IMG/VR virus record: IMGVR_UViG_3300010384_000010
Origin: a virus
Reading direction: 5' to 3' (one strand)
DNA length: 47,522 bases
How positions within the stretch are numbered: position 1 is the stretch's first letter; every line of letters begins with the position of its first letter. The notes beneath the pieces are model-generated. The model worked only from the letters and a program-made list of their open reading frames with translations, searched no databases and had not been told where the DNA came from. Shown piece by piece: positions 2,167 to 37,728 of this stretch. Made by a program: the position numbers and the translations under genes.

Positions 2167-2230
2167 GCGGTCCGGGACCCCGTCCCGCGCACCCCACTGC
2201 CAGAGCGCACGTTCAGAGGTCCCGGACCGC
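2167..2230 (-). repeat. 13-bp perfect inverted repeat (stem-loop) between the lysis-associated genes and the 1865..2128 gene
   Basis: gcggtccgggacc (2167..2179) pairs with ggtcccggaccgc (2218..2230). The loop is 38 nt and no U-tract follows on the sense strand. Confidence 0.6.
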
Positions 2231-2555: not shown

Positions 2556-2565
2556 GGGCTTGGCC

Positions 2566-3682: not shown

Positions 3683-4167
3683 TGTGCCAGCGTGCCCCCT
3701 GCACGAACATAGGCGGTGATAAGCTCGTCGAAGGTGTGCACGGGCTGGTCGTACCGGCTCGGCGGGAACGAGGCCCAGCACCCGGCGAGGGTGGCAATGG
3801 CGTCGTGGATGTGGCCCTGCTTGATCAACGGCAGCGCGTGGCGCTCGCGAATCATCTCCAGCGCGTACCGGTCCTGGGACAGCGGGCTGAAGTCGGGCAA
3901 GCCCAGGTTCCGCCGGTAGTACGGCCAATAGCGGTGGAGAATCTGGTAGCGCCCGGCGGCCGTGCTGTCGTGCCGGGCGTTGTAGATATCCGGGTGGTCG
4001 GCGTAGGCGTAGAACAGCAGCGGCTTTTCCGGGGTCGCCCCAACCAGGACGTTGTACCCATCGTCCGACAGCGCGAGCAGCCCGGGGCCGATTTCGCTCC
4101 AGGCGATCGTGTCCAGGAATGCCAGCACGTTGCGGCCACCGGCCGCCTGTTCAGAAATTCGGGCCAT
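3679..4167 (-). CDS. Endolysin, lambda R-like lytic transglycosylase (GH104)
   Basis: 162 aa. It aligns by eye with lambda R: AFLDTIAWSE (catalytic Glu), GRYQIL, LGLPDFSP.SQD, and C-terminal ...AGGT. Confidence 0.85.
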   Translation of the reverse strand: MARISEQAAGGRNVLAFLDTIAWSEIGPGLLALSDDGYNVLVGATPEKPLLFYAYADHPDIYNARHDSTAAGRYQILHRYWPYYRRNLGLPDFSPLSQDRYALEMIRERHALPLIKQGHIHDAIATLAGCWASFPPSRYDQPVHTFDELITAYVRAGGTLAQ

Positions 4168-9912: not shown

Positions 9913-10584
9913 TCACTGGCGAGTCTGGTTCCACGCCCGCATCACGGGCTCTTCGTAGCGCTGCAGCCGGTCGCCCAGGCACTGGTCCGCGTGGGACAGC
10001 AGCTTAGCCCCGGCCACGTACTTCTGCAGGTTCTTCTGGCGGACCACGGGCATCACGTGGTGCGTGTCGAGCCCGCGCCAGGCGAGATGGTCGCTGATCA
10101 TCGAGCGGTGGCACCGCCACCATTGGCATTCGCAGCAGAGCAGCGCGCAGCGTTTCTCGGTCAGCGCCCATTCGGCAATCAGCTCGGAGGCCGCGCGCAG
10201 GAAGCCCGGCGTGCTCATGAAGAAGCTGTAGTCGCGCAGCCCGGTGTTGGTCCAGCGGGGGCCGCCCCCCTCGCACCACGGATCGTTCAGGGCGATGCGC
10301 TGCTTGGGGAACTTGCGCCCCAGGTAGGGCCGGATGTCCACGCCGTGGGCGAGCATCTCCTCGGCCAGCGGCGCATGCTCCGGGAGCCAGCCGCCCAGCT
10401 GCGGGGCCCAGGCATAGCCGAAGCCTTCGGCCGGGAGCCACTGCTCCATGGCCTCGCGTTGGTACTGCGGCCAGCGACTGCCCGGGTGCGAGCGGGTGTC
10501 GACCACGGTATGGATGCCCGCCGCGCGCAGGAGGGCGGCGAAGTCCTGCTGGCTGTGGGTCGAATGGCCGATGGTCAGGATCAT
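9913..10584 (-). CDS. DUF488-family protein
   Basis: ORF trimmed to the ATG at 10582-10584. MILTIGHSTHSQQDFAALLRAAGIHTVVDTRSHPGSRWPQY matches the DUF488 N-terminal signature as I recall it. The Cys-rich segment LLCCECQWWRCHR is also typical. Confidence 0.55.
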   Translation of the reverse strand: MILTIGHSTHSQQDFAALLRAAGIHTVVDTRSHPGSRWPQYQREAMEQWLPAEGFGYAWAPQLGGWLPEHAPLAEEMLAHGVDIRPYLGRKFPKQRIALNDPWCEGGGPRWTNTGLRDYSFFMSTPGFLRAASELIAEWALTEKRCALLCCECQWWRCHRSMISDHLAWRGLDTHHVMPVVRQKNLQKYVAGAKLLSHADQCLGDRLQRYEEPVMRAWNQTRQ

Positions 10585-10820
10585 GTGCCTTCCCCCACGG
10601 GTGCCGGGTCCGATCCGGCCTCGATTGCGCGGATCAGCAGGGTGCGGACGCGCAGCTCGCGCTCCCGGGTGTCGCGGATGGCCTGGTCGCGAGCCGGGCA
10701 TGGCGGCAGCTGGGTGTTCATCCACACGTGGATGCCGGCGATGTGATTCAGCTCGCGCGTCAAGGCGTTCTCCACGATCTGGAGGTCCTCGCGCGCCATG
10801 CCTTCGAATGGGTTGCTCAT
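10581..10820 (-). CDS. Hypothetical protein
   Basis: 79 aa. The stop overlaps the DUF488 start (ATGA). Confidence 0.55.
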   Translation of the reverse strand: MSNPFEGMAREDLQIVENALTRELNHIAGIHVWMNTQLPPCPARDQAIRDTRERELRVRTLLIRAIEAGSDPAPVGEGT

Positions 10821-12647: not shown

Positions 12648-12932
12648 TCAAGCGCCGCGACACGCTCGCTCCACGAAGCTCCCCAGGTCCTTGACCCGGA
12701 CGACGACCCCGCGCTCGTACAGGACGCCGCCCCCGTAGCTCGACGTGCTCAGCGCCCGCCAGTCCTTGTCGAGCCCAAGAGAGTGGACCTGGGTATGCCG
12801 GGAGTGCGGCACGCGTTTGGTGACGGCCAGGACCAAGAAGTACCGGGTCCCGCACCGCAGACCTCCGGGGCCGCTGCCACGGGCGGGGTAAATGTCCCCC
12901 ACCCGCTCGCCGTCGACGGCAAACCTCTTCAC
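12648..12932 (-). CDS. Hypothetical protein (GTG start coupled to the upstream stop)
   Basis: The C-terminal 94 codons of ORF 12648..13322 have normal composition (VKRFAVDGERVGDIYPARG...). GTG 12930-12932 overlaps the exonuclease TGA (GTGA). Confidence 0.4.
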   Translation of the reverse strand: MKRFAVDGERVGDIYPARGSGPGGLRCGTRYFLVLAVTKRVPHSRHTQVHSLGLDKDWRALSTSSYGGGVLYERGVVVRVKDLGSFVERACRGA

Positions 12933-13669
12933 GCGCCCCGCCTCCGTTCCAGCTCCACCCGGGCGCAGTGCTTGGCATCCTCGCGCATGTCGGGCACCCC
13001 GGACATCCAGCGCAGGTAGTCGGCCGGGATCGTGTCCCAGGTCTGGCCCACATGCTTGCCGAGCGGGCAGCGGGGCAGGCGGGCCGGCTCGCGCGTCCAG
13101 GCGACCATCTCCGCGATCGCATTCTCGCGGGTCATCGTGAGCGTCATCTCGTCCAGGGCCCGCGACAGGATGCCGGCGGTCACCCGGGCATCGTGCAGGG
13201 CCGAGTGCGCCTCTTTGGCGCCGTTGCGCCCACGGCGCCCGATCTTGAGCCAGTAGCGCAGCCCCTCGTTGCTGTGGGAGGGAGCGTCGGGCCACAAGCG
13301 CAGGGCGGCCTTGTAGGTGCAAATCCAGGGCAGGTCGAGCAGGTCCTGCTCATCGCGCAGCACGCCGCGCTCATACTCGGCGTTGTGGGCAGCCAGGAGG
13401 ATCGAGCCCTCGCCGCCGTCCGACAGGAAGAGCTGCACTCGCAGCTCCGCCAGGGCGTCAATCCAGCTCGGCGCCCCCGCCAGGTCCTCCGGAATGATGT
13501 GGTGGACGGCCGAGACCTCGGGCGGCAGCTCGACGCCCTCGGGCAGGGCGACCAGCGTGTCCCAGCCGTACGCGGCCTCGTCGGGCGAGGCCAGGCCGAT
13601 TTCCACGGCGTGCGCGGTCTGCGCGTCGCGGCGGTCGGTTTCGAAGTCGAGCGTGAAGATGAAGTGCAT
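12929..13669 (-). CDS. DnaQ/ExoX-like 3'-5' exonuclease with a C-terminal DUF3820-like tail
   Basis: DEDDh motifs are present: FTLDFETD, AAHNAEYERGVL and AHSALHDARV. The C-terminus reads CPLGKHVGQTWDTIPADYLRWM. Trimmed to the ATG at 13667-13669. Confidence 0.75.
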   Translation of the reverse strand: MHFIFTLDFETDRRDAQTAHAVEIGLASPDEAAYGWDTLVALPEGVELPPEVSAVHHIIPEDLAGAPSWIDALAELRVQLFLSDGGEGSILLAAHNAEYERGVLRDEQDLLDLPWICTYKAALRLWPDAPSHSNEGLRYWLKIGRRGRNGAKEAHSALHDARVTAGILSRALDEMTLTMTRENAIAEMVAWTREPARLPRCPLGKHVGQTWDTIPADYLRWMSGVPDMREDAKHCARVELERRRGA

Positions 13670-14025
13670 CAATCGTTCCCCTTTACGAATGGTGAGCGCA
13701 GGCGGCCGTCCCGCCAGCACTGTTTAATGTTCTCCGACTGCGAAACCGGCTCCAGATGGTTCGGGTTGCAGCAGAGGGTGTTGTTGCAGCGGTGAGCGGT
13801 CACGTGGTGGCGCAGGAATCGGTGTCCCCACGCCACGGCCGCGAGCCAGTGGGACTTGAATTTGAAGCCGAAGATGTATGCCTGGCCGTACCGGCCATCG
13901 GTCGACTGGGCCCAATTCCAGCACCCGGTCTCCAGGTCGAGCGTGCAGCGCTCCAGGACGTATTCCCGGGCCTCGGCCAGGACCAGCGCGAGGAACAGGC
14001 ACGCGGCGGTCTCGCGATCACCCAT
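13669..14025 (-). CDS. HNH endonuclease
   Basis: AHRCNNTLCCNPNHLEPVSQSENI matches the HNH_3-type signature. Trimmed to the ATG at 14023-14025. 118 aa. Confidence 0.7.
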   Translation of the reverse strand: MGDRETAACLFLALVLAEAREYVLERCTLDLETGCWNWAQSTDGRYGQAYIFGFKFKSHWLAAVAWGHRFLRHHVTAHRCNNTLCCNPNHLEPVSQSENIKQCWRDGRLRSPFVKGND

Positions 14026-14272
14026 CGATCGCCCCCCACGTGAAGGGTAGGGCGAGCTGCGGGTCGGGGATGTCGCGCACGGCGAAGCTGCGGGGAGGGG
14101 CACCCAGCGTGGCGTTCCGGGTCTCGCGGCTCTGGCGGATGTACGCCTCGCGGTTGCGGAACGTCTCGCGGAGCCACTGGTCATCCATCACGCGCACCCC
14201 GAACCGGGGCGGCGGAACCTGGATTTCGTCGGTCATCGTCTCAGCCATGAATCCTAAGAACCGCTTTAACAT
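14018..14272 (-). CDS. Hypothetical protein
   Basis: ORF 14018..14458 trimmed to the ATG at 14270-14272, which directly follows CATAGAGGATAGAGAG. 84 aa. Confidence 0.45.
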   Translation of the reverse strand: MLKRFLGFMAETMTDEIQVPPPRFGVRVMDDQWLRETFRNREAYIRQSRETRNATLGAPPRSFAVRDIPDPQLALPFTWGAIDG

Positions 14273-14338: not shown

Positions 14339-14760
14339 GCCGTGAGCACGGCCTCCAGCTCGTGGAAGGCAATCCTGTTGCGCCAGCAGGTGCCCAGCCG
14401 GCACAACTCCGCGAAGGTGGCGTGGCCGAGCCTGGGCTCCAGCGCCTGCCACCGCCACAGGCAGAACAGGTCGCCGATCTGGGCCAGCACAAACACCCGG
14501 CCGCTGCCCTGGCGGGCCCGGCGGGTCATCCAGTTGCGCTGATCCGAGGTTAGGTGGTCGTAGGCGAAGTCCCAGGGCCGATCCTGGTTGGCCGGGCCCT
14601 TATGTAGGTGCTTCAGCTCAATCCACCCATCCTTACCGTGGATGCCAAACGACACGTCCGGAATGCCGGTGGCGTATCGGTCCTCATGGCGCTGGGCATC
14701 CCAGCGGCTTGCCATGCCCGCCCGGACGTGGTCCCACAACTTCTGCTCGGGCTCACGCAT
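14335..14760 (-). CDS. VRR-NUC / PD-(D/E)xK-type nuclease
   Basis: GIPDVSFGIHGKDGWIELK fits the D...E-x-K core of VRR-NUC domains. Trimmed to the ATG at 14758-14760. Confidence 0.5.
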   Translation of the reverse strand: MREPEQKLWDHVRAGMASRWDAQRHEDRYATGIPDVSFGIHGKDGWIELKHLHKGPANQDRPWDFAYDHLTSDQRNWMTRRARQGSGRVFVLAQIGDLFCLWRWQALEPRLGHATFAELCRLGTCWRNRIAFHELEAVLTA

Positions 14761-15421
14761 CGGCGGGGGCCTCCCCCACAGTGCAGTCCGGGCCGGCGAC
14801 GAAGTACAGGCGCAGGCCGCGCTTGGCACAGGCCCGACCCACCTCGTCGGCGAAGTGGCCGTCACCGTCCTCGCGCACCAGCCACACGGCCGAGCCCGCC
14901 GGGATGCCGTGCAGGTTGTCCGGGTGCGTGGTCGTGTGACAGGACGCCCGGTGGTGGCCGCGCACCTGGGCGGCGCGCGCCGGGTTGCGGCAGACGATCG
15001 CGTGGGGGGTCGGAATAGCCGGCACTGGGGCCACGTCGCCCTGGAGCAGCCAGTGGTGGTCGGTGAGCGCCTCACCCGCCCGCTCACCCGCGATCCCCGG
15101 GGCGAGCCGCTCCACCATCATCCCACGCAACAGGAGCAGGTAGAGGATGGCATCGTCCACCCGCCCGGTGATCGGCTCGGCGTACTCGCGGGCCTCGCCC
15201 CGGGCGGAGTCATTCACCCAAGTGGTGACCGAAAACATGTGCTTGTCCAGGGCGACCATGAGCACCTGCTCGCGGGTCAGGCCCAGGCGCGCGGCGGAGG
15301 CTTCGAAGTTGGCAAACTGGCTCTGTGCGCGCTGGGTGTACTCCTCGCCCTTGGCGGCGGTCAGCGCCAACAGGCGCTCGTGCAGCTCGTTGATGCTTTG
15401 CTTGAATTCGTGCTTGTTCAT
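14753..15421 (-). CDS. DUF1599-like (all-alpha, nucleotide-modification-associated) domain fused to an unknown ~110-aa C-terminal domain
   Basis: KGEEYTQRAQSQFANFEASAARLGL...LDKHMFSV...DDAILYLLLL matches the DUF1599 pattern as I recall it. The start overlaps the datZ stop. Trimmed to the ATG at 15419-15421. Confidence 0.45.
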   Translation of the reverse strand: MNKHEFKQSINELHERLLALTAAKGEEYTQRAQSQFANFEASAARLGLTREQVLMVALDKHMFSVTTWVNDSARGEAREYAEPITGRVDDAILYLLLLRGMMVERLAPGIAGERAGEALTDHHWLLQGDVAPVPAIPTPHAIVCRNPARAAQVRGHHRASCHTTTHPDNLHGIPAGSAVWLVREDGDGHFADEVGRACAKRGLRLYFVAGPDCTVGEAPADA

Positions 15422-15999
15422 GCCTGCGGCCCCGTGAGCTTGCCGGTGAGAGTGTAGACCGCGATTTGGGTCTCGTATCCCAATTCGACGGCGGTGTATA
15501 AGTCGTGCGCCTTGAACAGGTCGGCGATCGCACGGGACAGCGCCTGCCGCAGGCCATCGTAGACTTGCCGCGCATGGGCCCCGACGCCGAAGTCCCGAAT
15601 CCATCCGCACGCCTCGGCGAGGTCGGCCACCTTGACGATGTAGCCGGCCAGGGGGCATTCCCCATCGGGGGACACGCAGAAGGCCAGGTCCGAAATGCTC
15701 TGGTCCACCGCGTGCGCCGTTCGGTCGAGCAGTTGCCGCCCGCCTTCGCCTAGCATGCGCTTGGCGTTGCTGGGCATGTCACCCGTCACTACTTCGTGCA
15801 GGTCGTGGACGCGCGCCCACTCCATCGCGTTCAGCGTGATCGAGTTGCCCCAGTCCAGCAGGCCCAGGACCCGGAGCAGCTCTTCGGTGATCAGGCCCAC
15901 CCGGTACATGTGTTCGGCGATGGTCTGCTCGCGCGAGGTGGCCACGATGTGCCAGCGGCGCACGTGACCCGCCCGCATTTTTTGGTCAAGCGTCAACAT
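15418..15999 (-). CDS. datZ: HD-domain dATP triphosphohydrolase (DatZ-like)
   Basis: HD-superfamily motifs are present: RRWH, IAEHMYRV, VHDLHEVVTGD and KVADL. It lies directly downstream of mazZ and purZ. Confidence 0.7.
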   Translation of the reverse strand: MLTLDQKMRAGHVRRWHIVATSREQTIAEHMYRVGLITEELLRVLGLLDWGNSITLNAMEWARVHDLHEVVTGDMPSNAKRMLGEGGRQLLDRTAHAVDQSISDLAFCVSPDGECPLAGYIVKVADLAEACGWIRDFGVGAHARQVYDGLRQALSRAIADLFKAHDLYTAVELGYETQIAVYTLTGKLTGPQA

Positions 16000-16321
16000 G
16001 GGAGAACACCCCAGAAGGGAGCTGCGCCCACTGGCGCCGCCGGTTGATGAAAAGTTTGGCCAGGACGGCGTCCGCCACGTCCACGCCGTTCATGGAGGCA
16101 AGGTCGAGCAGCATGATGAAGACGTCGCCCCACTCCAGCGGGTCGGCCGGGCTCTTGATGACCTCGCCCAGCTCTTCGAACAGCTTGAGCCAGGCGGCGG
16201 CGGGCTGGCGGGCCGGGAACGTCTCGGAGGCCCACCCGTGGACGCGCGCCTGAAGGGCCGCCACAGTGATAGCGCCCCCCTCCTCGGAGGGCGCCCCGGG
16301 CGTGGGGAGGGACCCGTTCAT
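15986..16321 (-). CDS. mazZ: MazG-like NTP pyrophosphohydrolase (MazZ-like)
   Basis: LKLFEELGEVIK...EWGDVFIMLLDLA is a MazG-type acidic helix pair. ATG 16319-16321 overlaps the purZ TGA (ATGA). Confidence 0.6.
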   Translation of the reverse strand: MNGSLPTPGAPSEEGGAITVAALQARVHGWASETFPARQPAAAWLKLFEELGEVIKSPADPLEWGDVFIMLLDLASMNGVDVADAVLAKLFINRRRQWAQLPSGVFSHVDA

Positions 16322-17472
16322 GCCAGCTGCCTCGCGCGGTCCGTATACTGGCGGTCCGCCCACTGGTCAAACGGAGGGAGGACGGCGGCAACGTCGGGGT
16401 GGGTGCCGAGCCACGGATACTCGGCCACATCGCCGGCCGCCGGGCCGAAGCCCAGGTAGGTCATCGTGCCGCCCGCCCGCGAAACGGTCAGGTCGGTGCG
16501 GCGGATGAACTGGCGGAACTTGTCGATCGGCACGTAGTTGCAGAAGTTGAGAAAGACATCGTCCACGCCACAGGCGCGCACGGCCTCGGCCAGCTGGACT
16601 TGGGACATGGTGAAGATGCGGCGGGGCAGCTTCGTGACGGTGGTCAGCTCGGGCTCGCGGCCCAGGTCGCGCAGCCAGTCCAGTTCGACCTGGTCCGGGT
16701 AGCACGGGCCGGAGAAGCCCACCTGGTTGCCGGCCTCGTCGAAGCGGTTCGCGACGCGGATCGGGTAGGTGCGCGCGCACCCCACGACCCGGAGCTGCCG
16801 GGCGGCACGCGCGGGGATGCCCACGTCCGCCAGGACTTGGTGGGTGCTCACGTCGCGCGAGGTGCAGTAGGGGTAGAAGCCATGATAGAGCGAGAGGCTG
16901 TAGCCCTGGGCGCCCTCGATCTGGACCTCCCGGGCCACGTCCCAGGCGTTGGCGTAGGTCTCGGCGCTGGCGACCGCGAAGGCCAGGCCGGCGGCCTCGA
17001 TGTCCGGATGCACACCGCGCAGGGCGGACCACGCGGTGTTGTGCTTGTCGGGGTCGCGGCGGATGCGCTCGATCATCGCCTCGCCCACGCCCTTTTTCGT
17101 GCTGCCGATCTTGGTCATCGGGCCGGCTTCCAGGTCGCGGTGTTCTTGGGTGATAACCGCCGCGTGCGGGTGGATGAGGATGTCCACGTCGCGCAAGTGG
17201 TCGCGGCACGCCTCCAGCTCGGCGCGCAGGGCGGCCGGGTTGAGCAGGGAGCCGGGGCCGATCAGCAGGCGGCGCAGGTTCGGGGAGACCACGCCGTTGG
17301 CCAGCATCGTGTGGATGTAGCTGCGGCCGGCACCGTCGATGAAGGTGTGGCCCGCGTTGGCGGCCCAGGCGGTGGCCACGGTATCGGGGCGCCGGGTCTG
17401 CGCGAGATAGCCCGCGATCAGGCCCTTGCCGGTGGAGCCATATTGCAGGTCGATGATGAGGTTGCCTTTCAT
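16318..17472 (-). CDS. purZ: PurZ, N6-succino-2-amino-2'-deoxyadenylate synthase (PurA homologue)
   Basis: Trimmed to MKGNLIIDLQYGSTGKGLIAGYLA. The P-loop reads GSTGKG instead of the PurA GDEGKG. The blocks GAQGYSLSL, FYPYCTSRD, ELTTVTK, VFLNFCNY and YLGFGP match PurZ of known Z-genome phages as I recall them. Confidence 0.85.
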   Translation of the reverse strand: MKGNLIIDLQYGSTGKGLIAGYLAQTRRPDTVATAWAANAGHTFIDGAGRSYIHTMLANGVVSPNLRRLLIGPGSLLNPAALRAELEACRDHLRDVDILIHPHAAVITQEHRDLEAGPMTKIGSTKKGVGEAMIERIRRDPDKHNTAWSALRGVHPDIEAAGLAFAVASAETYANAWDVAREVQIEGAQGYSLSLYHGFYPYCTSRDVSTHQVLADVGIPARAARQLRVVGCARTYPIRVANRFDEAGNQVGFSGPCYPDQVELDWLRDLGREPELTTVTKLPRRIFTMSQVQLAEAVRACGVDDVFLNFCNYVPIDKFRQFIRRTDLTVSRAGGTMTYLGFGPAAGDVAEYPWLGTHPDVAAVLPPFDQWADRQYTDRARQLA

Positions 17473-17687
17473 TTCGCGCGGTCCCCTGTGCATTCGGTGT
17501 CGTAGGTGTGGTGGAAGTCTGGCCAGCCAGTGGCCGGGTCCTGCTTGTGCGCCGCGACCATGCGGCAATACTCGTCCTGATCATCGTTGCGAGGGCCGGG
17601 CAGCAGGGCGACGGCCGCCAGCACCACGAGGGCGAGGGCGAGCAGGGCCAGCCACAACGGGTCAGCGGTCTTCAGTGGGTTTTTCAT
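17469..17687 (-). CDS. Small membrane protein
   Basis: 72 aa with a TM segment LWLALLALALVVLAAVALL. The stop overlaps the purZ start. The leader motif lies upstream. Confidence 0.55.
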   Translation of the reverse strand: MKNPLKTADPLWLALLALALVVLAAVALLPGPRNDDQDEYCRMVAAHKQDPATGWPDFHHTYDTECTGDRAK

Positions 17688-17693
17688 CCTGTG

Positions 17694-17747
17694 CCTCTAT
17701 GCTCTATGGGCGGGAGGGAGTATAGCACGGCCGTCACGCGCCGTCTA
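17694..17747 (-). promoter_or_regulatory. Promoter-leader unit (TAGACG-17-TGc-TATACT) driving the purZ operon
   Basis: -10 at 17719..17724 and -35 at 17742..17747. Motif cctctatgctctatggg at 17694..17710. Confidence 0.45.
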
Positions 17748-17753
17748 CGCCTG

Positions 17754-17771
17754 CTTCACATCGTCTTCACG
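17754..17771 (+). repeat. Third copy of the 11-bp-phased CTTCAC(A/G) direct repeat, in inverted orientation
   Basis: The plus strand reads cttcacatcgtcttcacg. It lies 7-24 bp upstream (in the sense direction) of the -35 at 17742..17747. Confidence 0.4.
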
Positions 17772-18051
17772 CCCCGGGCATGCGAAGATTGAGCGCGTGG
17801 AGGCGGAAGCTCTCCGCTGCCGCCAGCCCCTCGCGGGCACGCTCGACGCGGCGGGTTGCACGCTCGATCAACGTGTTGTGGGCCGCCTCCCAGGTGTCGT
17901 ACAGCGTGGACCGCCCCAATCCGTCCTTGATGAAATATTCGAACGGGCGGCCGGTGCTGAAAGTGCGCTTGACCTTCGCCCCCTTGGGCGTCTTTTTCAC
18001 CAGCTCGACCGGGTGAATCTCGCCGTGCTCCAGCAGGTATAGCGTGGTCAT
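17767..18051 (-). CDS. Hypothetical protein
   Basis: 94 aa (MTTLYLLEHGEIHPVELVKKTPKGAKVKRTF...). Confidence 0.6.
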   Translation of the reverse strand: MTTLYLLEHGEIHPVELVKKTPKGAKVKRTFSTGRPFEYFIKDGLGRSTLYDTWEAAHNTLIERATRRVERAREGLAAAESFRLHALNLRMPGA

Positions 18052-18062
18052 GTTGGGCCTCC

Positions 18063-19919
18063 TCAGGCCGATGCAATGTGCCAGTTTTCGCCCACACCCT
18101 GGTCCGTGCGGATCGGCACGCGGAGCGAGATGCGGTCCTCGGGGCCAAACGCGGTCAAGATGCGGTTGACCTCGTCCTTCAGATGGTCGCAGCCCTCGGG
18201 CAGCATCCAGTCAAACTCGTCGTGCACGTTCAGGACCAGCCGCGCCCCGGCCTCGCGGATGTGGTCGGGCTGCGATTCGAAGAACTGGTCCGCCTCCACG
18301 AGCTTCACCTTCAGCGCGTCGGCCGCCGTGCCCTGGAAGATCAGCCCGCCGGCCTTGTACACAAACATGCCGCGCGGGAACCGGATGCGGCGGCCCAGGA
18401 TGGTGCACACGTGGCCCCGGGACTTGGCCACGGCCGACGCGTCCTTGAGCAGGTCCCGCACGCCGGGGATGTTGGCGTGGTACTTTTCAAACACCGCCTC
18501 CGCCTCGGGGCCAGGCTTGACCCAGGTCCCGCCGCGCCCGTTGGGCTCGATGGTGAACGGCAGGCCCATCTCCTGGGCGAGCTTGCCCTGGCCCATGCCG
18601 AACACCAGCCCCAGGTTGATCTGCTTGGCGTTGGGGTCACCCGCGAACCGGGCGGAGCGGGGCAGGCCGGTGAGCCCGGCGGCCAGCGAGTGGAAGTCGG
18701 TGTCGGGGTCCTTGTTGTACATCTCCAGAATTTCGGCGTTCCGCACATAGTGGGAGAACACCCGGAAGTCCATCTGCGCCCAGTCGTTGCAGACCCATCG
18801 GCAGCCCTGGTACGGCACGAACACCGCGCGCACGATGGCCGCCATGTCCTTGTCGCGCTTCGGAATCTGCTGGAGCGCCGGGGCGTTGACGGACAGGCGG
18901 CCGGTGCCGGTCCCCACGTCGCCCTCGCTCTTCGTCTGGTTGATGTTGGCGTGGATGAGGCCGCCGTGGTGGTTGCCCAGCACGTGGCCGCGCAGGAACG
19001 TGTCCCGGGCCTTGATCATTTTGCGCAGGCCCAGGATCTTCGCCGCCGCCGGGTGCTTCATGCGGCGCAGACAGTCCGCGTCGATCGATGCCTTGGCCCC
19101 GCTGTCGGAGGGGTCGGCAATCGTGCCATCGTTCAGCACAAAAATCTTCGTGCCGTCCGCCGTCCGCTCCTCGCGCGGTTCGAACAGCTTGTGGATGCTG
19201 CCGCTGGGGTTGGGGTTGACCGGAAATCCGGCCAGCCGGTCCAGCTCGCGCTGCTCCTGGCGCACCTTCACGTCCAGGGCATTGGCCGCGCGCTCGGCGG
19301 CCCCGATGTCCACCCGGACGCCGTACTGCTCCATCCGTACGATGACGGGCAGCAGCTGCATCTCCAGCTCGTGGACGCGCTCCAGGCCCTGTTTCTCGAT
19401 CTGCTCCTGCTGCCACATCCACAGGCGCAGGGCTGCGCGGGTGTCCTGCTTGGCGTAGCGCCCGACGATGCTTGCCGGGGCGCGGGGCAGGTTGGGCATC
19501 TGCGCGTGCCGGGTCGGCTTGCCGCCGAACAGGTCCGCCAGCTCCTGGTAGATGGAGGAGTCCTTGCCGATCCCCACGCAATCCTTGGCGACCGAGTCCA
19601 GGTCATAGGTGAGCCGGTGCTCATCAATCAGCGCCGCGCGGATCATTGTACACTCGGTGCGGTCGTTCGGCAGGATGATTCCGGCCTCGCGCGAGAAGTG
19701 CCAGTCGAACTTTATATGGTGGTTGACGACCTTGCGCACGCGGGGCATCTCCTCGCGCAGCCAGTCGATGACCTCGGGCTCGCGCCGGACGTCCCAGTAG
19801 TGATCCTGCTCGGGCGTGGAGAGGGCGACCCCGAAGATTTTGTCCTGCCACCAGGTCAGCCCGGTGGTCTCCAGGTCGTACGCGATGACCGGATAGTCGG
19901 CGATGCGGGGGAAGCTCAC
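18063..19919 (-). CDS. dpoZ: Family-A DNA polymerase with 3'-5' exonuclease domain (DpoZ-type candidate)
   Basis: Exonuclease motifs IAYDLETTGL and NHHIKFDWHF. Polymerase motif A NDWAQMDFRVFSHY, motif B PNAKQINLGLVFGMGQGKLA and motif C LNVHDEFDW. It lies next to the purZ cluster. Confidence 0.8.
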   Translation of the reverse strand: MSFPRIADYPVIAYDLETTGLTWWQDKIFGVALSTPEQDHYWDVRREPEVIDWLREEMPRVRKVVNHHIKFDWHFSREAGIILPNDRTECTMIRAALIDEHRLTYDLDSVAKDCVGIGKDSSIYQELADLFGGKPTRHAQMPNLPRAPASIVGRYAKQDTRAALRLWMWQQEQIEKQGLERVHELEMQLLPVIVRMEQYGVRVDIGAAERAANALDVKVRQEQRELDRLAGFPVNPNPSGSIHKLFEPREERTADGTKIFVLNDGTIADPSDSGAKASIDADCLRRMKHPAAAKILGLRKMIKARDTFLRGHVLGNHHGGLIHANINQTKSEGDVGTGTGRLSVNAPALQQIPKRDKDMAAIVRAVFVPYQGCRWVCNDWAQMDFRVFSHYVRNAEILEMYNKDPDTDFHSLAAGLTGLPRSARFAGDPNAKQINLGLVFGMGQGKLAQEMGLPFTIEPNGRGGTWVKPGPEAEAVFEKYHANIPGVRDLLKDASAVAKSRGHVCTILGRRIRFPRGMFVYKAGGLIFQGTAADALKVKLVEADQFFESQPDHIREAGARLVLNVHDEFDWMLPEGCDHLKDEVNRILTAFGPEDRISLRVPIRTDQGVGENWHIASA

Positions 19920-21355
19920 AGCGCGTAGCTCCTGTCAAAGCCACCCACAATCTCCAGCTCCTCGACCGCGCGGGTGACGCCCACGTAGAACACGCGGGCC
20001 TCCGCGTCGGGGTTGCCGTCCATGCCGCGCTCGATCCGCGCGGTGATGCCGGTGTGCAGGACCACGCGCCGGGCCTCGCGCCCCTTGGAGGCGTGGATGG
20101 TGGACAGGCGGATGGTCGGGGTCTGCGTCAGGTCCGCCTCCCGGAAGAAGTCCAGGAGCTGGATCGGCACCCGCAGCGAGCGCTCCCAGCCGCGCGCAAC
20201 GATCGCGCGCCAGTCCCGCGAGTTTAGGTCCGACTTGGTGGCGTCGGTGGCAACCTTCGCCAGGGCCTCAGCCTCGGCCGTCGACGGTACGTGCCCCGCG
20301 CCCATCCGGTGGATCAGGCGGATGGCATCGGCCCAGGTAGAGTCGAACAGGCCAGGCTTGCCGCCCTCGACCCGGTAGGGCTTGCGCACCGCGATCAGCT
20401 CCTCCTCCACCTCCTTCTTCTGCGTATGGCTCCGGGCCAGGATGAGCACATCGTCACCGTGGGTCACCTGCTCGGCCGTGAATCCGTTGCCCGAGCGCGT
20501 GACCAGCCCCTCCCGGGGCGCCGCGCGGTAGCTCTTTTTGACGCGGTGGCCTATGGTCGCTACTACCCCACGGGCGACCTCGTGCACGGCCCGGGGAACG
20601 CGGTAGGACTGCGCCAGGATGACCGGCTCGGCGCCGTACCGCTCGGTGAACTTGGCCATGCCGTGTGGGTCGGCCCCGGACCACTCGTAGATTGCCTGGT
20701 CATCGTCCCCGGCGATGGTCACCTCGTCCAGCTGGTCGAACCGACACATCGCGTCCACCATCTGCCACTGCAGCGGGGACAGGTCCTGGGCCTCGTCCAC
20801 GAACAGCACGCGGGCACCATGGTTGCGGGGCTCGGCCACGTACCGTTCGATCAGGTCGGTGAAGTCGGTGAAGCCATACGCCTGCTTCCACGAGTTGTAG
20901 CTCTCGACGCAGTGCTGGTAGCGCGCGAAGTCGCCGGGGCGCTCGCTGTCCGCGTAGTAGGCGTCCTTCCAGTCGCCCAGGGTGGCGCGCGCCAGCTCGT
21001 AGATCGCCAGGTACTTGTCGCCGTCCGCCATCTCTTGGCCGAACTCGTCGTCGCGGTTGGCCGCGCCGGTGAACTCGATGCCGGCGGCCTTACCGAACCG
21101 GCGCAGCTTGTAGCCGTCCACCATCTGCATGGGCGACGCGCCGCACGCGCGGAACGCCAGGGAGTGGAGGGTACAAATCTTGTCGGAGCGCGTCACACCC
21201 AGGCGGCGGAGCGCCTCGTTGGCGGCGGCCCGCGTGAATGACATGAAGCCGATGTGCTCGGCCCGATACCCGCGCTTGCGGGCCTCGCCGACACGCCGCA
21301 GCATCTCGGTGGTCTTGCCGGTCCCCGGGGGGCCGAAAATCGCGAACGCCTGCAT
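19916..21355 (-). CDS. UvrD/Rep-like superfamily-1 helicase
   Basis: Trimmed to MQAFAIFGPPGTGKTT (Walker A). Further motifs: LFVDEAQD, GDDDQAIYEWSGA, SYRVPRAV, STIHASKGREA and YVGVTRA. Confidence 0.8.
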   Translation of the reverse strand: MQAFAIFGPPGTGKTTEMLRRVGEARKRGYRAEHIGFMSFTRAAANEALRRLGVTRSDKICTLHSLAFRACGASPMQMVDGYKLRRFGKAAGIEFTGAANRDDEFGQEMADGDKYLAIYELARATLGDWKDAYYADSERPGDFARYQHCVESYNSWKQAYGFTDFTDLIERYVAEPRNHGARVLFVDEAQDLSPLQWQMVDAMCRFDQLDEVTIAGDDDQAIYEWSGADPHGMAKFTERYGAEPVILAQSYRVPRAVHEVARGVVATIGHRVKKSYRAAPREGLVTRSGNGFTAEQVTHGDDVLILARSHTQKKEVEEELIAVRKPYRVEGGKPGLFDSTWADAIRLIHRMGAGHVPSTAEAEALAKVATDATKSDLNSRDWRAIVARGWERSLRVPIQLLDFFREADLTQTPTIRLSTIHASKGREARRVVLHTGITARIERGMDGNPDAEARVFYVGVTRAVEELEIVGGFDRSYAL

Positions 21356-21371
21356 GTCTCTATCCTCTATT
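21356..21371 (-). promoter_or_regulatory. Leader motif copy (ATAGAGGATAGAGAC) abutting the helicase ATG, with no promoter of its own
   Basis: The minus strand reads TTTTTTAATAGAGGATAGAGACATG, directly after the terminator T-run. Confidence 0.5.
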
Positions 21372-21414
21372 AAAAAAGGGCGGCCTGCCCCAGGGGGTGG
21401 AAAGCAGGCCGCCA
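21372..21414 (-). terminator. Rho-independent terminator after the SSB-like gene
   Basis: The minus strand reads GGCGGCCTGC-15 nt loop-GCAGGCCGCC followed by CTTTTTT. 10-bp GC stem. Confidence 0.8.
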
Positions 21415-21434
21415 AAACAGCGAGTCCCGGGGAA

Positions 21435-22229
21435 TTAGAACTCGCTGGCGCCGCCGTTCCCGGCGGTGTCTTCGACATCGGACGCGCGATCGGCCGTCAC
21501 GTGGCCGGCGGCGATCGCCTTGTACATGCGCTCGGCGCGGGCGTACGCCTCGGCGGACGGGTAGCCGGCCGGCTTGACCGAGAGGTTATAGAACGACTGG
21601 TTCTGCTTGTTGGTGTCCTCGACCGCCGACAGCTGGTAGACGCGCCCGAAGCTGTCGGTGTTCGCGATGCGGATGAGGCTGTTCCACTTGCGCGAAATCT
21701 TGGCCTTGGACTTGGCCATGGAGACCACGATTTCTTCGATGCCGCCATCCGGCTTGACCAACAGGCAGAACTGCTGGTTGGTGTCGACCACCTCGTAGTC
21801 ATCGGCGCAGCTGTTGCCCTTCTCATCGGTCAGGTTCTGGCGCGCGCTCTCGGCCTCCTGCTGGGTCGGGAAAGCGCCGCCGAAGCCGCCGCCGAGCTTG
21901 CGGTCCTTCCACAACAGGTATTCCTTCACGAAGCCCACCGGGATGACCAACACGTCCTTGCCGTACAGCTCGCGGGTGACGTTGTTGTACAGCAGGCCCT
22001 CCTCGGCACCCTCGATGTAGTTGGGGTCCGACTTCTTGCGGCACGGGGACAGGTCCTGAATCACCTCCAGGCGCGGGATGACCAGGTCTTCGGCCTGGAC
22101 GTTCTCCTGGCCACGGGCGGAGCCCTGCTTGGCGCGCAGGTACTCGGGCATCTGGTCGGTGACCACCATGCCGCCGCCCTGGGTGGCCAGCTCGGTGCCC
22201 TGGTCCTTCTTGCTATCGCTCTTTGCCAT
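21435..22229 (-). CDS. Putative ssDNA-binding protein (T7 gp2.5-like tail)
   Basis: 264 aa. It sits between two helicase genes and is followed by the strongest terminator in the window. The acidic C-terminus ends in Phe (DVEDTAGNGGASEF), as in gp2.5-type SSBs. No family was recognised with certainty. Confidence 0.4.
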   Translation of the reverse strand: MAKSDSKKDQGTELATQGGGMVVTDQMPEYLRAKQGSARGQENVQAEDLVIPRLEVIQDLSPCRKKSDPNYIEGAEEGLLYNNVTRELYGKDVLVIPVGFVKEYLLWKDRKLGGGFGGAFPTQQEAESARQNLTDEKGNSCADDYEVVDTNQQFCLLVKPDGGIEEIVVSMAKSKAKISRKWNSLIRIANTDSFGRVYQLSAVEDTNKQNQSFYNLSVKPAGYPSAEAYARAERMYKAIAAGHVTADRASDVEDTAGNGGASEF

Positions 22230-22245
22230 GTCTTTTCTCGCTCTT

Positions 22246-22276
22246 GGGTTCGTAGGTTCTTAGGTTCTGGCTGTTC
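22246..22276 (-). repeat. Four phased GAAC(C/A) repeats in the SSB-like gene 5' leader
   Basis: The minus strand reads GAACAGCCAGAACCTAAGAACCTACGAACCC, 17-47 nt upstream of the ATG at 22229. Confidence 0.5.
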
Positions 22277-22389
22277 TGCCCTCGGTCCTCCCTGGGCAAG
22301 GTCGCCATCCCGACTCCGTGCGGCAACAGCCCCGCTTCACGTATGTACGGAATCCAGACTCCGGTCCGAAGTCGACCAGACCGCTGGCG

Positions 22390-22959
22390 CTATGCCTTGG
22401 TGATGGTCGCCATCGTGTACGGTTCGGCCTTGAACAGGTTCTCCGGGATGTCCTCGCCCTCCTCCATGTACTTCTTCAGGGTGGCCTTCAGGGAGGAGCT
22501 GTTCACGGTCTTTTTGACCAGGTCGCCACGGCCGTTGTCGTCCAGCCACTGGAACGCCTCGTCCTGCATCCCGGGCTTGATGCTGGCGTAGATGTCGCCG
22601 CGCAGGCCCACGCGGCCGATGCCCTCGATCTTGATGTTCTTCAGACCCTCGGCGTCGAAGCGCTCGGGCACCAACGCCAGGCGCAGGTAGTCGAAGCGGC
22701 GGCCCAGCTCTTTGGCGATCAGGTCGGCCGCGTCCTTGGCGCCGCGCAGGGCGTGCATCTCGCGGATGACTTCCAGTGTGGTCAGAGTGTCGGGGTTGGG
22801 CTGCGGCTCCGGGCCGAAATAGGTGCCCAGGTGGGCCAGCGCCAGGCCCACGGCCTCGCCGTACAGGCGGGGCTGCCCGCCGGCCTTGTACAGCAGGTCC
22901 AGCCCGTCGAACCGGCCGTTCGCGCCGTTGGCAAACTCGTTGCCGAATTCCTCGCTCAT
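22390..22959 (-). CDS. Hypothetical protein
   Basis: 189 aa (MSEEFGNEFANGANGRFDGLDLLYKAGG...). The leader motif is upstream. Confidence 0.65.
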   Translation of the reverse strand: MSEEFGNEFANGANGRFDGLDLLYKAGGQPRLYGEAVGLALAHLGTYFGPEPQPNPDTLTTLEVIREMHALRGAKDAADLIAKELGRRFDYLRLALVPERFDAEGLKNIKIEGIGRVGLRGDIYASIKPGMQDEAFQWLDDNGRGDLVKKTVNSSSLKATLKKYMEEGEDIPENLFKAEPYTMATITKA

Positions 22960-22963
22960 TTGT

Positions 22964-22979
22964 CTCTATCCTCTATCGG
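22964..22979 (-). promoter_or_regulatory. Leader motif copy (GATAGAGGATAGAGACAA-ATG) in a 23-nt intergenic gap
   Basis: The plus strand reads ctctatcctctatcgg, between the stop at 22983 and the start at 22959. Confidence 0.5.
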
Positions 22980-22982
22980 GTC

Positions 22983-23303
22983 TTACAGGTTGATGGTGAT
23001 GGGGCAATACGCGCGGTCGCGGTTGCTCCACCGCAGGACTCGGATCGGGCGGACGCCGCGCTCGTGGAGCAGGGCGAAGGCGATTCCCGAAACGATCGGG
23101 GACCCGGACGGGGCCAAGAAGTCAGCGGCCGGATCGAAACTACGCAGCTTCTGCCGCAGCTCGTCCACCAGCGCCTGATTGGCCAGCGAGTTGGCCACGG
23201 GTGACAGGTCGTGCCGGGTGAGAAAGTGCACATCGCCGAACTGCTCCGCCGGGGAGTAGTTGAGCTGGGCACTCTCTTGGGTGACGAAAACGCGGCTCTT
23301 CAT
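22983..23303 (-). CDS. Hypothetical protein
   Basis: 106 aa (MKSRVFVTQESAQLNYSPAEQFGDVHFL...). Confidence 0.65.
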   Translation of the reverse strand: MKSRVFVTQESAQLNYSPAEQFGDVHFLTRHDLSPVANSLANQALVDELRQKLRSFDPAADFLAPSGSPIVSGIAFALLHERGVRPIRVLRWSNRDRAYCPITINL

Positions 23304-23308
23304 GGTGT

Positions 23309-23412
23309 CTCTCTATCCTCTATCGCTTACCCGGGCGGGGCCGTCTCAGGGCCGCCGCCCGGGGTCGCACCTCAGGGGATTCCATTATACCCTACGGGGA
23401 GGGCGGTGTCAA
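23309..23412 (-). promoter_or_regulatory. Consensus sigma70-type promoter (TTGACA-17-TATAAT), GC hairpin leader and ATAGAGGATAGAGAG
   Basis: -10 at 23384..23389. The -35 at 23407..23412 lies in the last codons of the SNF2 gene. The leader hairpin is CCCGGGCGGCGGCC...GGCCCCGCCCGGG. Motif at 23309..23325. Confidence 0.65.
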
Positions 23413-25197
23413 CGCCTCCATCACGTCCTCTACACGCGCCGTTGACGCCGAGCGCTGCAGCTCGGTGATCCGCCCCCGGATGAACTCGGCGAGGTCCTGC
23501 TTGGTCTCGTTGGCCGACATGATTATCTCGTCGGTCGTGCCGCGCGCGACCAGGTCCACGATCAGGGTGGACTTGCCATCGGCCGTGCCGCGCTCCTCCG
23601 ACTGCATCCTGTCGGCAAACTTGAACGTGTTGCTGAAGTAGACGATGGTAGTCGCCTCGTCCATGGTCAGGCCCATGCCGCCGGTCGCCGCGTTACCGAC
23701 GCAGAATCGCGCCTTGTGCTTCTGGAACAGCTCATACACGTTAACATCGCGCTGGGCCTCGTCCACGGCACCGTGCAGCTCCACCACCTGGTCCTGCCCG
23801 TACCGGGCGCGCAGGGCAGCAGTGACCGCCTGGATTTCATCGATGAAGGCGCACCACACGATCATCGGGCCCTCGTACTCCTCCGCGCAGGCCAGGACCT
23901 CGGCCACCTTGGGGTTGGTGCCGTCGATGGCCTTGCGGTAGGTGCGGGGCAGGCGCTTCGCCGGGCCCCAGACTTCGCGCTGCCTGGCCATCTCCTCCTC
24001 GGTGTACTGGTAGGACACGTGGCCGCCCACGACCTCCTGCAAGCGGAGCATCTTCTCCAGGACGTTCTGGACGATCAGCTGCGGCTCGCCGTCGACGCCC
24101 AGGCGCGAGCGCTTGCGCAGGTCCGAGTACAGGGCCCGCTGGCCGGGCGTCATATCTACCTCGCGCAGGACGTACACCTTCTCGGCGTCGACGACTTCGT
24201 GCTGGCGCACCTGGTACGTGTAGGGGCTGACCAGCTCCACCAGCTCGTCCAGGTTATCGTAGCCGATGATGTCCTTGTTCTCGTACCCGCCCTTGACGGT
24301 GTAGCGGGCCTGGAAGGAGAAGTAATCGCCGATCCCCAGGATGTCCGGGTCCAGAAATTCGAACTGCATATACAGGTCGAGGGGGTTTTTGGTCAGGGGC
24401 GTGCCGGTCAGAATCCGCCGGAAGTCCACCATCCGGCCCACGCTCGCGACGTTCTTGGAGCGGGCGGAATTGTGGGTCTTGATGAGGCTGGACTCGTCCA
24501 CCGCGCACATTACGCGCGGGTTGGCCAGGCAGAACCGTTTCACGTACTCGATGGCCGAGCCGGCGGACAGAGACTCTACGCCCACCAGCAGCCATTTGAA
24601 GTCGTGCGGCCGATCGAGCCACCGGCCAAACGCGCGGCCCTTGTCCTTGGTGTCGAGCAGGTGGTAGTCGACCGGGATGGTTGCATCCTTTGCGAACTCG
24701 CGCACCCAATTCTTGCGCAGGGACAGCGGGCAGATCAGCACCACCGCGCGGACCTTGTCCTCGATCCGCAGCGCGCACGCCTCATCAATGAGCACCTTGG
24801 TCTTGCCAGTGCGCATGTCCATGAACAGGGCCGCCGCGCTGAGCCCGTAGACCTTGCTTAGCGCCTCCCGCTGCTTGGCCCTGGGCTGGCGCTTGAACCC
24901 GTAGTAGGCAGGGAACGCGTCAGGGGCCGGGCGCTCGCTCCTCCGCTGTTGGTGCTCCTCGATCCGGGCGCGGGCGGCGGCGGTGACCAGGGCGCTGCCC
25001 TTGTAGACCCGGATGATTTCTTCGATGTTCGCCCGGATCGCGGGCGCTGTCCAGGCATTGCGGCCCTTGTTCCAGCGCCGGTTGGGGAGCGCCCGCACGC
25101 GCCCGTTGTCGAAGATTGGGCAGGTGATGATGAATTGCCCTTTCTTCACGTCGAAGTCGATGACGGTCTTAATACTCGGGTTCGAAACGGGTTGCAT
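23392..25197 (-). CDS. SNF2-family (DEAD-like) helicase
   Basis: 601 aa. Motifs: FMDMRTGKT (motif I), AVDESSLIK (DExx), LTGTP, and a C-terminal helicase domain with GGMGLTM. Confidence 0.8.
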   Translation of the reverse strand: MQPVSNPSIKTVIDFDVKKGQFIITCPIFDNGRVRALPNRRWNKGRNAWTAPAIRANIEEIIRVYKGSALVTAAARARIEEHQQRRSERPAPDAFPAYYGFKRQPRAKQREALSKVYGLSAAALFMDMRTGKTKVLIDEACALRIEDKVRAVVLICPLSLRKNWVREFAKDATIPVDYHLLDTKDKGRAFGRWLDRPHDFKWLLVGVESLSAGSAIEYVKRFCLANPRVMCAVDESSLIKTHNSARSKNVASVGRMVDFRRILTGTPLTKNPLDLYMQFEFLDPDILGIGDYFSFQARYTVKGGYENKDIIGYDNLDELVELVSPYTYQVRQHEVVDAEKVYVLREVDMTPGQRALYSDLRKRSRLGVDGEPQLIVQNVLEKMLRLQEVVGGHVSYQYTEEEMARQREVWGPAKRLPRTYRKAIDGTNPKVAEVLACAEEYEGPMIVWCAFIDEIQAVTAALRARYGQDQVVELHGAVDEAQRDVNVYELFQKHKARFCVGNAATGGMGLTMDEATTIVYFSNTFKFADRMQSEERGTADGKSTLIVDLVARGTTDEIIMSANETKQDLAEFIRGRITELQRSASTARVEDVMEALTPPSP

Positions 25198-30159: not shown

Positions 30160-30171
30160 GGGGTCGGTCCT

Positions 30172-30741
30172 TTAAGCGTTGACTTCGATGGTGACGCTGA
30201 CGCCGGCCGGACGGGGCATGAGGTCCGGCTGCTGAATCACGGACGCCTCCCAGGGCTGCAGGGCGAAGTTAAACACATACTTGATCGCCATGCCACCCAA
30301 CTCCTCGACGTGGCAGTCGCCGCGCCCGGCGAACAGGAACGAGAGCAGGGCGTTCATGCTCGGCGCAGTGAAGCTGCTGATATTCGCCAGAGCCTTGGTC
30401 ATGATGAGCACCCGGTAGGCATCATCGGTCAGGTTATAGACGCCGCCGGAATGTGGGCCATCATAGAACGGCTCCTGGTTGAACGGGAACGAGCCCGGGA
30501 GCGCCTCTTCGAAGCCCAGGTAGTCCGGCAGCGGCTGAATGGTGATCTGGCGCGGGATGTTGACGATTCGGCCCCAGATGTCAAGCCCGAAGCCCTGCGC
30601 GGTCTCCACGTTCCACACGTAGTCGTAAAAGGCGTCCAGGTCCGCGCCCGGATCGACCCACCCGTTGGTGTAATCGACCAGCGCCGCGATGCGCGGGCTG
30701 TTGGCGTACTGGTTGAGGATCGTCTGCTCAGGGTTCAGCAT
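30172..30741 (-). CDS. DUF2612-type baseplate/tail-fibre adaptor protein
   Basis: Trimmed to MLNPEQTILNQYANSPRIAALVDY..., which matches the DUF2612 N-terminus as I recall it. It follows the baseplate J gene. Confidence 0.55.
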   Translation of the reverse strand: MLNPEQTILNQYANSPRIAALVDYTNGWVDPGADLDAFYDYVWNVETAQGFGLDIWGRIVNIPRQITIQPLPDYLGFEEALPGSFPFNQEPFYDGPHSGGVYNLTDDAYRVLIMTKALANISSFTAPSMNALLSFLFAGRGDCHVEELGGMAIKYVFNFALQPWEASVIQQPDLMPRPAGVSVTIEVNA

Positions 30742-30745
30742 GGCA

Positions 30746-37713: not shown

Positions 37714-37728
37714 GGGTTCCGGCTCCTG

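Follow-up and report, generated by a model that had tools for sequence, protein, structure and literature searches.

The uncultured virus record IMGVR_UViG_3300010384_000010 (IMG/VR) raises the question of whether a group of genes at positions 15418-19919 encodes the machinery by which some phages replace adenine in their DNA with 2-aminoadenine (Z). The window, meaning the whole stretch of DNA that was analysed, is 47,522 nt long. A preliminary description, made from its letters alone, had named a purZ-mazZ-datZ operon next to a proofreading family-A DNA polymerase. Based on the evidence set out below, the window very probably carries a complete, apparently functional Z-cluster (datZ-mazZ-purZ) with a partner dpoZ in the replication module of an uncultured contractile-tailed phage, in whose virion DNA A is expected to be replaced by 2-aminoadenine. 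The genes in question, all on the minus strand, are purZ (16318-17472), for a predicted N6-succino-2-amino-2'-deoxyadenylate synthase, a PurA homologue that would use deoxyguanosine monophosphate (dGMP); mazZ (15986-16321), for a putative MazZ-1/DUF550-type (d)GTP pyrophosphohydrolase that would supply dGMP; datZ (15418-15999), for a predicted HD-domain dATP triphosphohydrolase; and dpoZ (18063-19919), for a family-A DNA polymerase with a 3'-5' exonuclease, of the phiVC8-like DpoZ clade. The similarities of the four proteins to known enzymes were far past chance (E-values 1e-15 to 1e-133), and the four assignments are supported by profiles, by the best match to solved enzymes and by residue-level comparison.

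The open reading frame (ORF) 16318-17472 matched a single Pfam family, Adenylsucc_synt, and the PHROG family phrog_1211 (2e-80). The latter, annotated as "2-aminooxy adenylosuccinate synthetase", is the PurZ family, to which the characterised purZ genes of phiVC8 and of phages like SH-Ab 15497 belong. Among PDB sequences the protein matched the PurZ of S-2L (7odx, 1e-86) and of phiVC8 (6fm1, 7e-80), followed at a distance by the best-scoring cellular PurA, an archaeal one (8e-25), and by the PurZ0-type, PurA-like structure 7vf6 (9e-20). Expressed as bit scores, the values were 294 for the PurZ reference and 91 for PurA, a gap of ~200 bits. The preliminary description had taken the replacement of the P-loop Asp as the hallmark of PurZ and had quoted several further sequence blocks of PurZ from PhiVC8/S-2L-type phages. 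Alignment to phiVC8 PurZ, S-2L PurZ and Escherichia coli PurA bore this out. Its P-loop, QYGSTGKG, aligned column for column with QWGDEGKG of E. coli PurA, so that Ser stands in place of the catalytic Asp, and the blocks GAQGYSLSL, FYPYCTSRD, ELTTVTK, VFLNFCNY and YLGFGP were all present and aligned with the two phage enzymes. The equivalents of the dGMP-pocket residues Y21, G22, S23, N49, A50, T132, Q190, Y203, C204, T205, R240 and V241 were kept (Y11, G12, S13, N39, A40, T125, Q189, YCT, R239 and V240 in the window protein). The PurZ-specific insertion after the V241 equivalent was present as ANRFDEAGNQVGF, as was the TTVT tip of the aspartate loop (within ELTTVTK). The ATP/dATP site was also kept (N305, F306, G335 and P336, in FLNFCNY and GFGP), with Q308 changed to Asn as in phiVC8.

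A tblastn search with this protein against 50,697 phage genomes returned 207 records that fell into two groups. The first, PurZ proper (40-52% identity, E <= 1e-74), comprised Klebsiella phages, Salmonella phage PMBT28, Acinetobacter phage SH-Ab 15497, S-2L, phiVC8, Alteromonas phage ZP6 and Stenotrophomonas phages. The second consisted of actinophage PurZ0 at 27-33% identity. Phylogenetic placement, which the preliminary description had put forward as a check, located the protein inside the PurZ clade of a neighbour-joining tree, among uncultured sequences and apart from PurZ0 and E. coli PurA, that is, outside cellular PurA (a distance tree of 350 columns with one PurA and one PurZ0 as outgroup). 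The nearest relative, at 88% identity, was found on a 19-kb Logan contig (L001) with the same gene order, and more than 2,000 homologues were present at E <= 1e-20 in a large protein database. Taken together, the residues that match those of the characterised enzymes and the position in the tree support the ORF being a PurZ, which would use dGMP.

The product of mazZ matched PF04447 (DUF550) at 6e-10. Its best match among PDB sequences was S-2L MazZ (7ody, 3e-21), and the next, dCTP pyrophosphatase 1, was not significant (E = 0.07). The metal-ligand equivalents E34, E35, E38, E50 and D53 were kept, as were R83 and the determinants of guanine N2 recognition, I56 and D60. In the numbering of the window protein these sites are listed as E50, E53, E63 and D66 (metal), R96, I69 and D73. 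With these features the protein is a putative MazZ-1/DUF550 enzyme, standing alone at 111 amino acids (aa). For datZ, the Pfam matches were YfbR-like and HD_3, and the PHROG match was phrog_7076, "dATP triphosphohydrolase" (2e-28). Its best PDB match was S-2L DatZ (6zpa, 6e-15), with YfbR at 3e-4, and the motifs RRWH, AEH and HDLHE by which it had originally been recognised were all present. The metal ligands H34, H66, D67 and D119 (H30, H65, D66 and D126 here) and the phosphate contacts R19, K81 and K116 (R15, K80 and K123 here) were kept. The same was true of two specificity residues, W20, which serves in exclusion of the 2'-OH/ribose, and I22, which serves in exclusion of the 2-amino group (W16 and I18 here).

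The polymerase matched the Pfam families DNA_pol_A and DNA_pol_A_exo1. Among PDB sequences it matched 7pbk at 3e-133, a sequence which is that of the phiVC8 polymerase (DpoZ), and Taq at 5e-33. The proposal of an intact, dpoZ-type proofreading enzyme was upheld, since all three exonuclease motifs (I-III; YDLETTG, NHHIKFD and YAKQD) are preserved and the signatures of the clade are present. These signatures include the extended E1/E2 element with the equivalents of R161 and M165 (R137 and M141 here), insertions 1-3 relative to Klenow, and the substitutions L455, F459 (the Tyr-to-Phe change at the steric gate) and G548, which correspond to L436, F440 and G525. The best phage matches were all from Z-genome phages. 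The data support membership of the phiVC8-like DpoZ clade (DpoZ-2), and a preference for the triphosphate of Z (dZTP) is predicted.

The boundaries of the four genes proved exact as first described, and their junctions were read from the sequence. The purZ stop and mazZ start share an ATGA overlap (GCATGAAC), mazZ and datZ overlap by 14 nt (15986-15999), and the gap of about 0.6 kb between the dpoZ stop and the purZ start measures 591 nt. An ATGA also couples purZ to the gene before it, orf72, and datZ to the gene after it, orf225, while uvrD and dpoZ overlap through GTGA. The ATGA and 14-nt junctions define a translationally coupled unit, orf72-purZ-mazZ-datZ-orf225. The wider order of primase, SNF2, gp32/33/34-like genes, UvrD, DpoZ, PurZ, MazZ and DatZ is common to SH-Ab 15497 and phiVC8 and was also found in PMBT28 and in ~60 IMG/VR contigs. 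Among 60 IMG/VR PurZ loci, the order purZ, mazZ, datZ was observed in 56, and a DpoZ match was likewise obtained in 56 of the 60.

The pathway that these genes would serve is known from the literature on S-2L, phiVC8 and SH-Ab 15497 and is applied here by homology. MazZ would convert dGTP to dGMP, which PurZ would then join to aspartate, using ATP or dATP, to give the N6-succino-2-amino-2'-deoxyadenylate (dSMP). The host PurB and host kinases would carry dSMP through dZMP to dZTP. DatZ would destroy dATP, and DpoZ would copy the genome, favouring Z:T over A:T with the aid of its proofreading exonuclease. The preliminary description had stated that the gene set removes dATP, supplies dGMP and makes dZTP. 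The first two parts agree with the literature; the third does not, as the product of the cluster is dSMP and the host enzymes complete the synthesis. No match to a finishing enzyme of the PurB or kinase type was found among the scanned ORFs, which were all but some eight small ones at 6.5-12.5 kb.

Several points weigh against the reading that A is replaced by 2-aminoadenine in the virion DNA, which we infer from the gene content. The evidence is a contig from a JGI metagenome, and Z reads as A in sequencing. The solved MazZ-2 and PurZ0 references stood outside the residue-by-residue alignments, and the promoter of the operon is a candidate recognised by a consensus match only. In DatZ, P79, a base-contacting residue in S-2L, corresponds to Asn78 in the window protein. 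This position is Val in phiVC8 and falls under 'conserved or conservative substitutions' in the DatZ paper, so that P79 is not strictly a defining residue. Finally, the polymerase has Glu at the position of phiVC8 S583, as do SH-Ab 15497 and classical PolA; S583 is not counted as a clade signature in the paper on DpoZ.

The alternative that survives best is that the four genes are true orthologues of PurZ, MazZ, DatZ and DpoZ acting partially or conditionally, which would give a virion DNA of mixed A and Z. The change at DatZ P79 would be in keeping with a mixed composition, and so would the published finding that the S-2L Z-cluster expressed in E. coli gave only 4-23% substitution. The selectivity of DpoZ, moreover, has been published as a preference dependent on proofreading and not as an absolute gate, with no single determinant found. 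Against this, both devices for excluding adenine, DatZ and DpoZ, are present here with their key residues kept, and complete A-to-Z substitution has been published for S-2L and for Z-phages in general. For phiVC8 and SH-Ab 15497, too, replacement was reportedly complete in Science papers of 2021. A mixed composition is consequently considered improbable, and full replacement remains the preferred reading. If the virion DNA is of this kind, its A/T-rich signals (-10 boxes and repeat motifs) would present Z:T pairs to the proteins that read them, and restriction or nanopore work on this phage should expect Z behaviour.

A further alternative is that the contig is an assembly chimera, in which a Z replication module from a non-contractile-tailed phage became attached to structural genes from a myovirus unrelated to it. 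The contractile-tail module (28699-39240, minus strand) comprises genes for the tail sheath (37729-39240; phrog_205, 1e-87), tail tube (37282-37713), tape measure (34813-36735), baseplate hub and wedge (30746-34068; wedge phrog_6, 1e-66; hub phrog_196/E217_GP41) and a fibre (28699-30159), all on the minus strand. The structural half also encodes a major capsid protein, a NUDIX-DUF2213 protease, a portal protein and a terminase. The sheath was at most 45% identical to those of cultured phages (Burkholderia PE067/phiE131, Pantoea PA-1 and Aeromonas vB_AsaM-56). The closest structural relative was IMGVR_UViG_3300037467_002484 (L148; readable over 32-48.7 kb), with 70% identity in the sheath and 76% in the wedge. 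After its fibre genes, this relative has a leftward gene block (L148 11894-15305) that includes an XRE-type helix-turn-helix protein, at the place where the window has its primase. The difference suggests that phages with another early region, possibly a temperate one, have this tail module in common with the window.

The different genes after the fibre in that relative could be taken in favour of a chimera, as could the closest PurZ relative being a 19-kb fragment without structural genes. Nor did a further contig turn up in which the PurZ lineage and the sheath lineage of the window are combined; no contig was common to the IMG/VR listings of PurZ, DpoZ, sheath and fibre, and a scan with TerL gave no close relative. 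Contrary to such an artefact, an exact 55-bp direct repeat at window positions 1-55 and 47468-47522 closes the assembly into a circle of 47,467 bp. The arbitrary start of the window splits the portal gene, whose ORF (46274 to about 285/417) reads through the circle junction. All large genes lie on one strand. The overall G+C content is ~67%; the replication half (0.667) matches the structural half (0.669), and the tetranucleotide signatures of the two halves correlate at r = 0.89, compared with r = 0.72 against the structural relative. The matching G+C and tetranucleotide signatures argue against a chimera, and Z-clusters in myoviruses are shown independently by Burkholderia phage Bm1, described below. 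A joining of unrelated phages is therefore very unlikely, and the Z-cluster and the contractile tail are taken to belong to one genome.

Least tenable of all, with hardly any chance of being correct, is the view of ORF 16318-17472 as an auxiliary metabolic gene of the ordinary PurA type, boosting the synthesis of adenosine monophosphate among neighbours of generic nucleotide housekeeping: it can appeal to Adenylsucc_synt being the sole Pfam match and to the many database copies labelled 'adenylosuccinate synthase', whereas the catalytic Asp of GDEGKG is Ser, the dGMP pocket, the loop insertion at V241 and the TTVT loop follow the pattern of PurZ, the PurZ score exceeds that of any PurA by ~200 bits, the protein clusters with PurZ in the tree, and its linkage to MazZ, DatZ and DpoZ is exactly that of proven Z phages.

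The last gene of the coupled unit, orf225 (14753-15421, minus strand; 222 codons), encodes a two-domain protein of phrog_6802. Its N-terminal 110 residues constitute that family, which is without a Pfam model; even a threshold of E <= 1 gave no Pfam match, either for the protein or for seven of its homologues. A database search gave 61 proteins at E <= 0.001, the window's own included, and among homologues on contigs longer than 20 kb all but five were on contigs of 36-58 kb. The residues E27, Y28, F36, N38, F39, R50, L54, K60, H61, E82, G86, R87, D90 and Y94 were invariant. In three metagenomic homologues (P0158, P0164 and P0175), the same domain is fused N-terminally to MazZ/DUF550. An AlphaFold2 model gave a confident four-helix bundle, with a predicted local distance difference test (pLDDT) score of 87. 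When the model was compared with BFVD, the top matches were unnamed viral proteins (template modelling (TM) score about 0.75, E = 1e-4). Next came many 'nucleotide modification associated domain 1'/DUF1599 proteins, with TM scores of 0.53-0.66 and probabilities of 0.85-1.0, at E-values of 0.1-1.7 that are not significant. Fold searches of the PDB gave nothing at E <= 0.001; the matches were weak and MazG-like, the best at E = 0.8. The predicted four-helix fold may resemble that of Nmad1/DUF1599 or MazG proteins. The C-terminal part, a small alpha/beta domain, had only weak SIS/flavodoxin-like matches.

A BLASTP comparison of orf225 with the DUF6378 protein of Bm1 gave nothing significant, nor did hhalign comparisons of its N-terminal domain with DUF5664-type N-terminal domains and with MazZ alignments. 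Assignment of the N-terminal domain to Nmad1/DUF1599 by sequence or profile was rejected, there being no Pfam match and no significant hhalign match. Of 56 IMG/VR PurZ loci, 9 had the gene, 6 of them with it directly beside datZ, which indicates an accessory gene of one sub-lineage. The most economical guess is a role in the nucleotide pool linked to MazZ and DatZ. Tentatively, orf225 could be an accessory part of the Z-cluster, hitherto undescribed, that is confined to a sub-lineage of Z-phages, acting on the purine deoxynucleotide triphosphate pool either by extra hydrolysis of dATP or dGTP or by regulation like that of the DUF5664 domain. If this were true, small Z-genome myoviruses with a Z operon of five genes would be a new lineage, defined by this genome. 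In any event, the family offers a cheap, testable lead for a new nucleotide-pool enzyme.

Two small genes lie between dpoZ and purZ, both on the minus strand. The first, orf94 (17767-18051), had no Pfam or PHROG match, was kept solely in the nearest relative (L001/L002) and was not similar to the small 'ssDNA binding protein' that SH-Ab 15497 encodes at that position. The second, orf72 (17469-17687; 72 codons), encodes a protein with a hydrophobic N-terminus that belongs to phrog_6168 (function unknown), and its C-terminal part is kept upstream of purZ in three relatives (L137-L139). A consensus scan placed a candidate sigma-70-like promoter ahead of orf72-purZ at 17719-17747 (minus strand), reading TAGACG-17-TATACT with an upstream TG. 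Within the intergenic region concerned (17688-17766, minus strand), an extended -10-type match (TG-n-TATACT) precedes the tandem CATAGAGCATAGAG. The 13-mer that surrounds the -10 box recurs elsewhere no more often than chance would allow.

The replication module upstream of the cluster (19916-26743, minus strand) encodes a UvrD-type helicase, proteins like Pam3 gp34, gp33 and gp32, an SNF2 helicase and an AEP primase. Three consecutive genes in this module (21435-23303, minus strand) match Pfam families named for cyanophage Pam3, namely gp34, gp33/DUF7307 and gp32. Homologues of the gp34-like protein were found in 488 phage records, 345 of them from Pseudomonas phages and some from Z-phages. 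This spread beyond Z-phages indicates that this part of the module is not specific to them. Downstream of the cluster are genes for an HNH endonuclease (13669-14184) and a DnaQ/RNase T-like exonuclease (12929-13720), both on the minus strand, which are kept at the same place in L001, L137 and L138. A 270-aa protein with a DUF488 domain (3e-18) is encoded among the small early genes (9913-10725, minus strand).

Some further features were observed in and beside the structural half. In the ORF at 42957-44672 (minus strand), a NUDIX hydrolase domain (residues 51-169; PF00293, 6e-21) is fused N-terminally to the DUF2213 head-maturation protease. Portal proteins carry this domain in some PHROG families, and the fusion may be a Nudix enzyme associated with the capsid. 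Downstream of a short tail-fibre-like ORF lies a gene for a GDSL-family esterase/lipase (PF13472, 3e-27; the two ORFs are at 574-1737 and 1865-2197, minus strand). The pair sits between the lysis genes and the portal gene, and the GDSL protein may be a virion-associated deacetylase or esterase. The putative lysis cassette (2253-4167, minus strand) consists of an endolysin (3679-4167; phrog_90), a protein with an N-terminal transmembrane helix (2786-3067) and an overlapping ORF with the lipobox-like signal LVTMAAC (2566-2916), each on the minus strand; the latter two resemble an i-spanin/o-spanin pair. A Gram-negative host is suggested by the lipobox ORF. A search of 185,579 genomes for prophages with a related baseplate wedge gave only an Enterobacter prophage, 53% identical, which is uninformative on the host. 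The possibility of a temperate phage was dropped, as no tRNA was found in the window and no integrase or repressor match among the scanned ORFs. The source is an uncultured, apparently virulent phage with a contractile tail.

The window adds the complete, closed genome of a GC-rich contractile-tailed phage to the set predicted to have Z-DNA. At the nucleotide level, a megablast search of its 4.5-kb Z region against the 50,697 phage records gave no match. The closest cultured relatives by protein were the siphoviruses SH-Ab 15497 (Acinetobacter), PMBT28 (Salmonella) and vB_Kpn_K21lambda1 (Klebsiella), with identities of 46-52% in PurZ, ~48% in DpoZ and ~50% in the Pam3-gp34-like protein. The SH-Ab 15497 group shares with the window the order of SNF2 helicase, gp32-34-like genes, UvrD, DpoZ, PurZ, MazZ and DatZ, as well as the same DpoZ signatures. 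It differs in its siphovirus morphology, in a G+C content of 48% compared with 67%, and in showing no nucleotide-level similarity. The MazZ of SH-Ab 15497 is a 385-aa fusion with an N-terminal domain, whereas that of the window is the 111-aa DUF550 protein alone.

S-2L has datZ, mazZ and purZ contiguous and in the same order as the window, and its enzymes were the best structural-reference matches (7odx, 7ody and 6zpa). All published catalytic and specificity residues of the S-2L enzymes are kept except DatZ P79, and Q308 of S-2L PurZ is Asn in the window, as in phiVC8. For replication, S-2L uses a non-selective PrimPol without DpoZ, whereas the window has a DpoZ of the phiVC8 type. The Vibrio podovirus phiVC8 resembles the window in the signatures and insertions of DpoZ, in PurZ (44% identity) and in a syntenic replication module. 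It differs in having MazZ-2 where the window has MazZ-1, in its podovirus structural module and in a lower G+C content.

The published accounts consulted describe Z-phages only as siphoviruses and podoviruses, and literature searches on PurZ in myoviruses gave no paper describing a Z-genome myovirus. The preliminary description had suggested that a GC-rich host and a contractile tail may be new. This suggestion is only partly borne out, being weakened by Burkholderia phage Bm1 (PP183292; relative BCSR129), which shows myovirus morphology in the electron microscope, infects a GC-rich host of the beta-proteobacteria and already carries the gene set. Its region PP183292.1 32727-37748 encodes, in the order seen in the window, a polymerase like DpoZ (42% identity), PurZ, a MazG-like protein of 111 aa and DatZ; the Bm1 paper contains no mention of aminoadenine, a Z genome or adenylosuccinate synthetase. 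The PurZ lineage of Bm1 differs, grouping in the neighbour-joining tree with phiVC8 and not with the window, so that the two myovirus associations look independent. The Bm1 genome is also larger, at 67.5 kb with terminal repeats compared with the 47,467-bp circle of the window. Its MazG-like gene matches MazG better than DUF550, and the DUF6378 protein downstream of its datZ region, annotated 'phosphofructokinase', has no significant similarity to orf225. The PurZ/DpoZ module has thus been combined with at least two myovirus chassis, those of Bm1 and the window, besides siphoviruses and podoviruses, a spread that fits the recent report of several phylogenetically distinct groups of Z-phages. 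The system itself is known, and the window is an added member of it in a new uncultured myovirus lineage.

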